A stretch of 64,000 nt of DNA from Escherichia coli (GTDB lineage Bacteria > Pseudomonadota > Gammaproteobacteria > Enterobacterales > Enterobacteriaceae), in assembly GCF_045037415.1 (NCBI RefSeq), contig NZ_CP173438.1; one strand, written 5' to 3'. Position numbers and translations under genes: made by a program. Numbering within the stretch: the stretch's first letter is position 1; each line of letters opens with the position of its first letter. A model generated the notes under the pieces. The model was given only the letters and a program-made list of their open reading frames with translations. It did not search any database and was not told the DNA's origin. Positions 36,095 to 36,731 of this stretch are shown in pieces.

Positions 36095-36673
36095 ATGAGT
36101 GAAAAAAGCATTGTTCAGGAAGCGCGGGATATTCAGCTGGCAATGGAATTGATCACCCTGGGCGCTCGTTTGCAGATGCTGGAAAGCGAAACACAGTTAA
36201 GTCGCGGACGTCTGATAAAACTCTATAAAGAACTGCGCGGAAGCCCACCGCCGAAAGGCATGCTGCCATTTTCAACCGACTGGTTTATGACCTGGGAACA
36301 AAATGTTCATGCTTCGATGTTCTGTAATGCATGGCAGTTTTTACTGAAAACTGGCTTGTGTAATGGCGTCGATGCGGTGATCAAAGCCTACCGTTTATAC
36401 CTTGAACAGTGCCCGCAAGCAGAAGAAGGACCGCTGCTGGCATTAACCCGTGCCTGGACATTGGTGCGGTTTGTTGAAAGTGGATTACTGCAACTTTCCA
36501 GCTGCAACTGCTGCGGCGGCAATTTTATTACCCATGCTCACCAGCCTGTTGGCAGCTTTGCCTGCAGCTTATGTCAGCCGCCATCCCGGGCAGTAAAAAG
36601 ACGTAAACTTTCCCAGAATCCTGCCGATATTATCCCACAACTGCTGGATGAACAGAGAGTACAGGCTGTTTAA
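36095..36673 (+). CDS. flhC: flagellar master regulator FlhC
   Basis: 192 aa with Cys cluster. Confidence 0.95.
36604..36630 (+). promoter_or_regulatory. sigma-28 (FliA) promoter inside 3' end of flhC (TAAACTTT-N11-GCCGATAT), drives motA operon / MotR
   Basis: Close match to TAAAGTTT-N11-GCCGATAA consensus. Confidence 0.6.
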
Positions 36674-36731
36674 CTGATACGGTGTGGCGAAACATTCCAG
36701 CAGCGGTAACGACGTACCGCTGCTTTTTTTT
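36637..36731 (+). ncRNA. motR: probable MotR sRNA (from sigma-28 promoter to flhDC terminator)
   Basis: Inferred from promoter and terminator positions plus recall of a motA 5'UTR-derived sRNA; ends approximate. Confidence 0.3.
36698..36731 (+). terminator. intrinsic terminator after flhC
   Basis: CAGCAGCGGTA...TACCGCTGCT hairpin plus T8. Confidence 0.8.

Follow-up and report, generated by a model that had tools for sequence, protein, structure and literature searches.

The end of flhC in Escherichia coli raises the question of how much a single short stretch of DNA can encode: does it close a reading frame, carry a promoter for sigma-28 (FliA) RNA polymerase, and give rise to a small RNA that ends ahead of motA, and if so, how are these functions reconciled? 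We addressed this question in a 64,000-nt stretch of E. coli DNA (RefSeq GCF_045037415.1, contig NZ_CP173438.1; hereafter, the window), in which an initial annotation, made from the sequence alone, had flagged positions 36604 to 36731. The features that frame the problem are as follows.

35.7-40.6 kb, + strand: flhDC-motAB-cheA region, with flhD ending at 36092, and motB and cheA following motA
36095-36673, + strand: flhC coding sequence, 192 codons and a stop codon (open reading frame list and E. coli annotations)
36637-36731, + strand: MotR small RNA, 95 nt, identical to K-12 motR (b4828) at 93 of 95 positions
36699-36731, + strand: intrinsic terminator, with a 10-bp stem (36699-36724), an ACGACG loop, and a U8 tract (36724-36731)
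36732-36799, + strand: remainder of the motA 5' UTR, between the MotR 3' end and the motA start, present in read-through transcripts only
36800-37687, + strand: motA, with a GTG start, the first gene of motAB-cheAW (open reading frame list and RefSeq; PMC4183435, PMC10578931)

The end of flhC coincides with the motR locus

The initial annotation had named the MotR small RNA at this position, and a comparison with the published coordinates places MotR here and not elsewhere. In the RefSeq record of K-12 (NC_000913.3), an ncRNA named motR (b4828, "small RNA MotR") occupies 1977208-1977302, is 95 nt long, and overlaps the final 37 nt of flhC. It aligns base for base to the window, with K-12 1977302-1977208 corresponding to 36637-36731; two substitutions fall inside the RNA, whereas the promoter and the terminator are identical. 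The published MotR cloning primer SM001 and T7 template likewise start with ACAACTGCTGG, i.e., at window position 36637 (Melamed et al. 2023, eLife 12:RP87151; PMC10578931). With the start set by the K-12 annotation and this primer, the RNA that ends at 36731 is 95 nt long, just as the roughly 95-nt transcript had been predicted. Compared with K-12 MotR, the window is alike in locus, promoter, start, length, terminator, and the GUG of the seed, and differs by a U instead of an A at nt 49 and an A instead of a C at nt 54, both beside the seed.

The same arrangement is widespread in the species. Among 5,426 complete E. coli genomes, the flagged interval was found in 5,376, always under flhC/motA annotations, and the 95-nt MotR sequence was present at 95% identity or more in the same number (5376/5426). 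A permissive covariance-model scan of window positions 34000-39000 returned no Rfam 15 match at E <= 1. Rfam 15 apparently contains no model for MotR; with no match, the search neither supports nor contradicts the identification. We are highly confident that the flagged interval represents motR in E. coli. What we describe here of the sequence anatomy, K-12 identity, and conservation was observed directly.

The motR feature is already published and annotated, and the locus itself holds no new biology. It nevertheless illustrates dense coding with textbook quality: within 130 nt lie the C terminus of the master regulator FlhC, a sigma-28 promoter, the end of flhDC, a small RNA, and the motA leader. 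The last 70 nt of flhC contain the promoter, and the last 37 nt double as MotR nt 1-37. Our additions are minor and computational (a frozen MotR nt 2-19 segment, a candidate helix, and sequence variation next to the seed) and could guide a short follow-up on how the ratio of MotR to motA mRNA is set.

Two observations concern the other end of the operon. The uspC-flhD intergenic region in the window (34962-35733) is ~770 nt long, and the corresponding interval in MG1655 is 1,555 nt; judged by length, the window interval is without the 768-bp IS1H that lies upstream of flhD in MG1655. In K-12, an antisense RNA, AsflhD (b4839), is further annotated across the 5' end of flhD.

A sigma-28 promoter lies inside flhC

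The initial annotation had placed a near-consensus FliA promoter within the last 70 bp of flhC. We found it at 36604-36630, with two mismatches, at a published FliA ChIP-seq site.

36604-36611, + strand: sigma-28 (FliA) -35 element TAAACTTT, over flhC codons R170-K171-L172-S173
36623-36630, + strand: sigma-28 -10 element GCCGATAT, over flhC codons A177-D178-I179

The promoter reads TAAACTTT-N11-GCCGATAT on the + strand, with cccagaatcct as its 11-nt spacer, and matches the sigma-28 consensus TAAAGTTT-N11-GCCGATAA at 14 of 16 positions; the stringent -10 core, GCCGATA, is exact. The -35 element begins 70 nt ahead of the end of the flhC stop codon, and 6 nt separate the end of the -10 element from the MotR start at 36637. 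Two matches with no more than two mismatches occur in the 64-kb window, compared with 0.03 expected from 100 dinucleotide-preserving shuffles of the window, none of which reached two. Given this excess, the flhC-internal promoter is real and not a chance match. The promoter sequence is the same in the window and in K-12, and an identical 28-mer, TAAACTTTCCCAGAATCCTGCCGATATT, is listed as the FliA ChIP-seq site "(flhC)motAB-cheAW" (Fitzgerald et al. 2014; PMC4183435). The window promoter shows no difference from the flhC FliA promoter "duon" of Fitzgerald et al. (2014, 2017/18).

To place the promoter in a broader context, we scanned for FlhC in one genome per species and obtained 80 Enterobacterales flhC loci. 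TAAACTT(T/A)-N11-GCCGATA is kept without change in 78 of them, at a constant distance from the flhC stop codon, with a spacer that varies freely. The promoter has been described as the most conserved FliA promoter and as a constraint on FlhC Ala177-Asp178 (bioRxiv 10.1101/188474), and our 80-locus survey reproduces both the promoter conservation and the Ala177-Asp178 constraint.

The elements lie wholly within the coding region and the -10 element encodes the conserved Ala-Asp, as expected if the FlhC amino acid sequence had created a promoter-like sequence by chance, but we consider this practically excluded, given the 0.03 matches of such quality expected per window, elements that are invariant in 78 of 80 loci whereas the spacer between them drifts, the frozen synonymous sites beneath them (see below), the FliA bound at the site in ChIP-seq (PMC4183435), and an FlhC D178A mutant that is still functional (bioRxiv 10.1101/188474), and published ChIP-seq, reporter, and TSS data had already refuted it.

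Other sigma-28-like sites in the window are worth recording. The second of the two matches with no more than two mismatches is a perfect consensus, TAAAGTTTCCCCCCTCCTTGCCGATAA, which lies ahead of the tar operon (41190-41216, + strand) and is the FliA ChIP-seq site listed for tar-tap-cheRBYZ (PMC4183435). A site with three mismatches, TGAAATTGCACCAGATCGAGCCGATAA (33372-33398, - strand), lies antisense inside the otsA open reading frame (33094-34527, + strand), and its sequence is listed as the intragenic FliA binding site "(otsA)" (PMC4183435). Two further sites, at 8419 and 12976, also have three mismatches each; they fall within prophage structural genes, and we regard them as chance matches. 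These genes (~5400-15700, + strand) include those for a lambda-type portal (5401-6975), an SppA-like head protease (6975-8282), a P2-type baseplate protein V (11746-12663), and a tail protein I (13927-14553).

One of the surveyed loci, that of Enterobacter cloacae DSM 26481 (NZ_CP056117.1, ~1990-2112), has a spacer of 10 nt instead of 11 (CCGGGATGCT), and its FlhC matches residues 1-173 only, with a later stop. A one-base deletion may account for this locus, as it would shift the flhC reading frame and at once make the sigma-28 spacer shorter; a sequencing error is equally possible.

Synonymous sites are frozen at the promoter and at the MotR 5' end

To separate constraint on the protein from constraint on the DNA or RNA, we examined synonymous variation codon by codon in 71 flhC genes of equal length from 71 species. 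Among 144 conserved degenerate codons, 13 have no synonymous variation at all, and 12 of these 13 fall within three groups: codons 167-172 (the -35 element and the sequence just upstream), codons 177-178 (the -10 element), and codons 182-187 (MotR nt 2-19). Upstream of the final 26 flhC codons, a single further codon is frozen. Codons 170-172 beneath the -35 element show no synonymous variation, and neither do the GCC and GAT codons of the -10 element; the frozen codons at both elements fit the published constraint on the promoter.

The third group lies downstream of both promoter elements. Codons 182-185 and 187 (MotR nt 2-13 and 17-19) have no synonymous variation across the 71 species, and codon 186 has almost none. 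Judged by these silent positions, the freezing of codons 182-187 indicates nucleotide-level selection on the MotR 5' end itself. In the available portions of the published accounts that we examined, we found no description of the freezing of codons 167-168 or 182-187.

The first group extends beyond the -35 element. At codons 167-170 (36593-36604, + strand), GTA, AAA, and CGT have no synonymous variation and AGA has almost none. The sequence that leads into the -35 element, GTAAAAAGACG, may be an extended or UP-like promoter element.

MotR is unlikely to be a by-product of the motA promoter

What would the RNA do once made? We propose the following course of events, most of which has been described for K-12 (PMC10578931). 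FliA RNA polymerase would start at 36637 from the promoter in the last 70 nt of flhC. Most transcripts would stop at the terminator, 26 nt beyond the flhC stop codon, yielding the 95-nt, Hfq-binding MotR, and the remainder would read through to give motAB-cheAW mRNA. In K-12, the MotR region around nt 43-54 then base-pairs within the coding regions of rpsJ (S10) and fliC and raises the expression of S10 and fliC, and flagella number and motility increase.

The published K-12 results for each of these steps come from the study of Melamed et al. (PMC10578931). The MotR promoter lies within the flhC coding sequence, and a Hfq-bound MotR band of ~95 nt is lost in a fliA deletion. Larger bands stem from read-through of the MotR terminator into motAB-cheAW; the read-through into motA foreseen by the initial annotation is thus stated for K-12, and motA is transcribed from the flhC-internal sigma-28 promoter via read-through. 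MotR pairs within the rpsJ coding region at about +150 and raises S10, and it also pairs inside fliC, with an increase in both fliC mRNA and flagellin. MotR over-expression gives more flagella. The authors speculate that more S10, together with NusB, favors antitermination, also at the motR terminator itself, which would then be read through. A compensatory rpsJ mutation failed to restore MotR binding; owing to this lack of rescue, the target mechanism is not fully proven even in K-12. We infer that sigma-28 dependence, Hfq binding, size, targets, and phenotypes transfer from K-12 to the window strain, on the strength of the identity at 93 of 95 positions.

A simpler view would be that the promoter and terminator serve only motAB-cheAW expression and the end of flhDC, and that the 95-nt RNA is a functionless by-product of a leaky terminator. 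The promoter has long been known simply as the class 3 promoter of motAB-cheAW (PMC4183435), and motA expression alone can explain its conservation (10.1101/188474). Against this view stands the chromosomal M1 seed mutant (GUG>CAC at nt 46-48): these 3 nt leave the MotR level unchanged but lower flagella number, motility, and flagellar promoter activity in K-12 (PMC10578931). MotR is also recovered with Hfq in co-precipitations, and RIL-seq detects its chimeras with rpsJ and fliC (PMC10578931); conservation across genera extends to non-coding MotR positions such as the GUGG motif and C61/C62. The M1 phenotype largely refutes the by-product view, which we now consider very improbable.

MotR, taken as a functional small RNA, has relatives among the sigma-28-dependent RNAs. 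Like MotR, UhpU, FliX, and FlgO are sigma-28-dependent, UTR-derived, and Hfq-binding, with terminator-type 3' ends, and UhpU shares with MotR a promoter inside a coding sequence. However, MotR arises from a 5' UTR by premature termination, whereas UhpU, FliX, and FlgO derive from 3' UTRs, FliX and FlgO by processing. On flagellar synthesis, MotR acts as an activator and FliX as a repressor.

The seed region carries natural variation

Both substitutions that distinguish the window from K-12 MotR fall in or beside the segment that pairs with rpsJ.

36679-36690, + strand: seed/rpsJ-pairing region, MotR nt 43-54 (M1 oligos, alignment, and duplex prediction)

The M1 triplet (GTG>CAC) corresponds to nt 46-48 (36682-36684), and its GUG is intact in the window. 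Immediately 3' of this triplet, the window has T for A at nt 49 (36685) and A for C at nt 54 (36690). The exact window allele (U49/A54) is found in 567 of the 5,376 E. coli genomes and the K-12 allele (A49/C54) in 2,897. Strain SK1144 (NZ_AP018784.2), for example, matches the window at every base over 36560-36810. Intermediate E. coli alleles occur as well; O157:H7 has U49/C54, and another allele combines U49/A54 with a changed loop at nt 77. U49, which forms a GUGUGG motif, is common to E. albertii, Citrobacter, Salmonella, and others, and since it is shared so widely we take U49 as ancestral and A49 as derived; on this comparison, the window allele U49/A54 is the ancestral state.

To estimate what these alleles might do, we predicted the duplex locally around rpsJ +130..+165. 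The prediction recovers the published site, pairing rpsJ +141..+152 with MotR nt 43-54. The values below are thermodynamic predictions only.

K-12 MotR (A49/C54): -22.4 kcal/mol
Single revertants: about -18.7 kcal/mol
Window MotR (U49/A54): -15.1 kcal/mol
M1 mutant: -11.2 kcal/mol

We had also run an unrestricted prediction of MotR nt 1-62 against the whole of rpsJ; it returned implausible long-range duplexes and was replaced by the local calculation. The target itself hardly varies, rpsJ being at least 99% identical in 5,425 of 5,426 genomes. Because the predicted rpsJ duplex of the window allele is weaker, the S10 effect may differ in strength here, which suggests that the MotR-S10 link of K-12 need not apply at the same strength to strains with this allele. 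Natural seed alleles (A49/C54 in K-12, the ancestral U49/A54 here) may tune the action of MotR on rpsJ. Such variation could help test the K-12 S10 results for the large share of E. coli that carries the ancestral allele.

A conserved terminator and a candidate antiterminator

The terminator at 36699-36731, at which the initial annotation had the transcript end, is as strong as it had proposed: a 10-bp stem with six G-C pairs and a U8 tract, with a free energy of -17.3 kcal/mol (z = -4.8 compared with shuffles). It is the sole terminator-like site between flhC and motA, and for this reason the hairpin presumably also ends flhDC transcripts. In homologs, a promoter-to-terminator unit of 88-115 nt (88-96 in all but one) is represented by 64 distinct sequences from Enterobacteriaceae and Erwiniaceae, in which the terminator takes the form CAGCAGCGG...CCGCUGCU-U(6-9). 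In an alignment of 65 sequences, the seven lower pairs of the stem are essentially invariant and the three upper pairs show compensatory changes, with 22 double-change cells in the upper stem compared with 4.6 +/- 1.7 in shuffles. The available main text of Adams et al. 2021, a 3'-end mapping study, makes no mention of motA, MotR, or flhC, and a literature search on MotR with terminator and read-through found nothing beyond the Melamed paper.

What sets the share of transcripts that pass this terminator? A possible, though doubtful, answer is that MotR has a built-in attenuator, in which a helix between its 5' end and the base of the terminator competes with the terminator and sets the ratio of MotR to motAB-cheAW mRNA.

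36641-36648, + strand: MotR nt 5-12, CUGCUGGA, 5' strand of the candidate helix, over flhC codons L183-L184-D185
36696-36703, + strand: MotR nt 60-67, UCCAGCAG, 3' strand of the candidate helix, with nt 63-67 at the base of the terminator 5' arm

In the nascent RNA, nt 5-12 would pair with nt 60-67 and hold the lower half of the terminator 5' arm; the competition between helix and terminator would then set the share of transcripts that end as MotR or continue into motAB-cheAW. Several predictions and observations are consistent with such a helix. Its predicted probability is ~1.0 in nascent transcripts 1..78 of both the window and the K-12 allele, and in the full-length RNA just 3.2 kcal/mol separates the terminator fold from the less stable alternative. 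Of 65 homologs, 64 are predicted to form the helix. The gap between folds with and without the terminator is 6.4 kcal/mol, compared with 12.3 +/- 2.5 kcal/mol when nt 1-60 are shuffled, and 8 of 500 shuffles were as good; this metric was, however, picked after a first one had failed, which weakens its p value. That first metric, the summed pairing probability of the arm with upstream bases, was rejected: 328 of 1,000 shuffles scored as high, as any G+C-rich arm finds some partner.

The pattern of conservation points in the same direction but has other possible sources. The synonymous sites of codons 182-187 are frozen or nearly so, C61 and C62 are invariant, and T60 is at least 90% conserved, all three of these nucleotides lying outside the terminator stem. 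Yet the frozen sites could reflect local hairpins of the 5' end with nt 26-36, effects of the initial transcribed sequence, or a second target-pairing site. Covariation is absent: 99.4% of cells are paired, six of the eight pairs never vary, and none has changed on both sides, so that all eight pairs are essentially invariant and uninformative either way.

Published variants also bear on the helix. MotR* (nt 6-8 TGC>GAG), a more abundant MotR derivative that was found by chance (PMC10578931), no longer forms the helix in silico, which is what one would expect of a helix that lowers termination; the abundance of MotR* could equally reflect RNA stability. Further, a strain whose flhC had been exchanged for a thyA cassette carrying a promoter of its own, and which received FlhC from a plasmid, was fully motile (10.1101/188474), which suggests that, depending on where the deletion ends, the flhC-internal segment may not be needed for read-through. 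The reach of the helix is a further concern: it sequesters no more than 5 of the 10 terminator pairs, which leaves the upper stem able to nucleate and to displace the helix. If the candidate antiterminator is true, it would explain the frozen flhC codons 182-187 across Enterobacteriaceae and Erwiniaceae, as well as the invariant C61/C62 and the greater abundance of MotR*.

We also considered translation-coupled switching, in which ribosomes that finish flhC block the antiterminator on flhDC transcripts, so that terminator strength would vary with the promoter in use. We did not adopt this idea because a ribosome at the stop codon covers roughly nt 20-49 and leaves nt 5-12 free.

The arrangement recalls 5'-leader attenuators (trp, pyrBI, and riboswitch platforms), in which the 5' arm of a terminator likewise has an alternative upstream partner. 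The likeness is structural and drawn from predicted folds only: the MotR helix would sequester just half of the stem, and does so without covariation, and unlike in leader attenuators the terminated product doubles as a small RNA. To our knowledge, no sensing step is known for the MotR terminator or the candidate antiterminator, and the S10/NusB speculation mentioned above is the sole published proposal for a switching signal.

Some members of the order depart from this layout. The loci of Serratia, Pectobacterium, and Brenneria keep the flhC sigma-28 promoter, but they yielded no canonical CAGCAGCGG terminator and have other downstream hairpins instead. In Pectobacterium and Brenneria, a long hairpin, AUCUAUCACUG...CAGUGAUAGAU, lies about 45-90 nt past the predicted start. 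In Serratia, a GCCGGCG hairpin without a U tract directly follows the stop codon, and the synonymous sites of codons 183-186 are relaxed.
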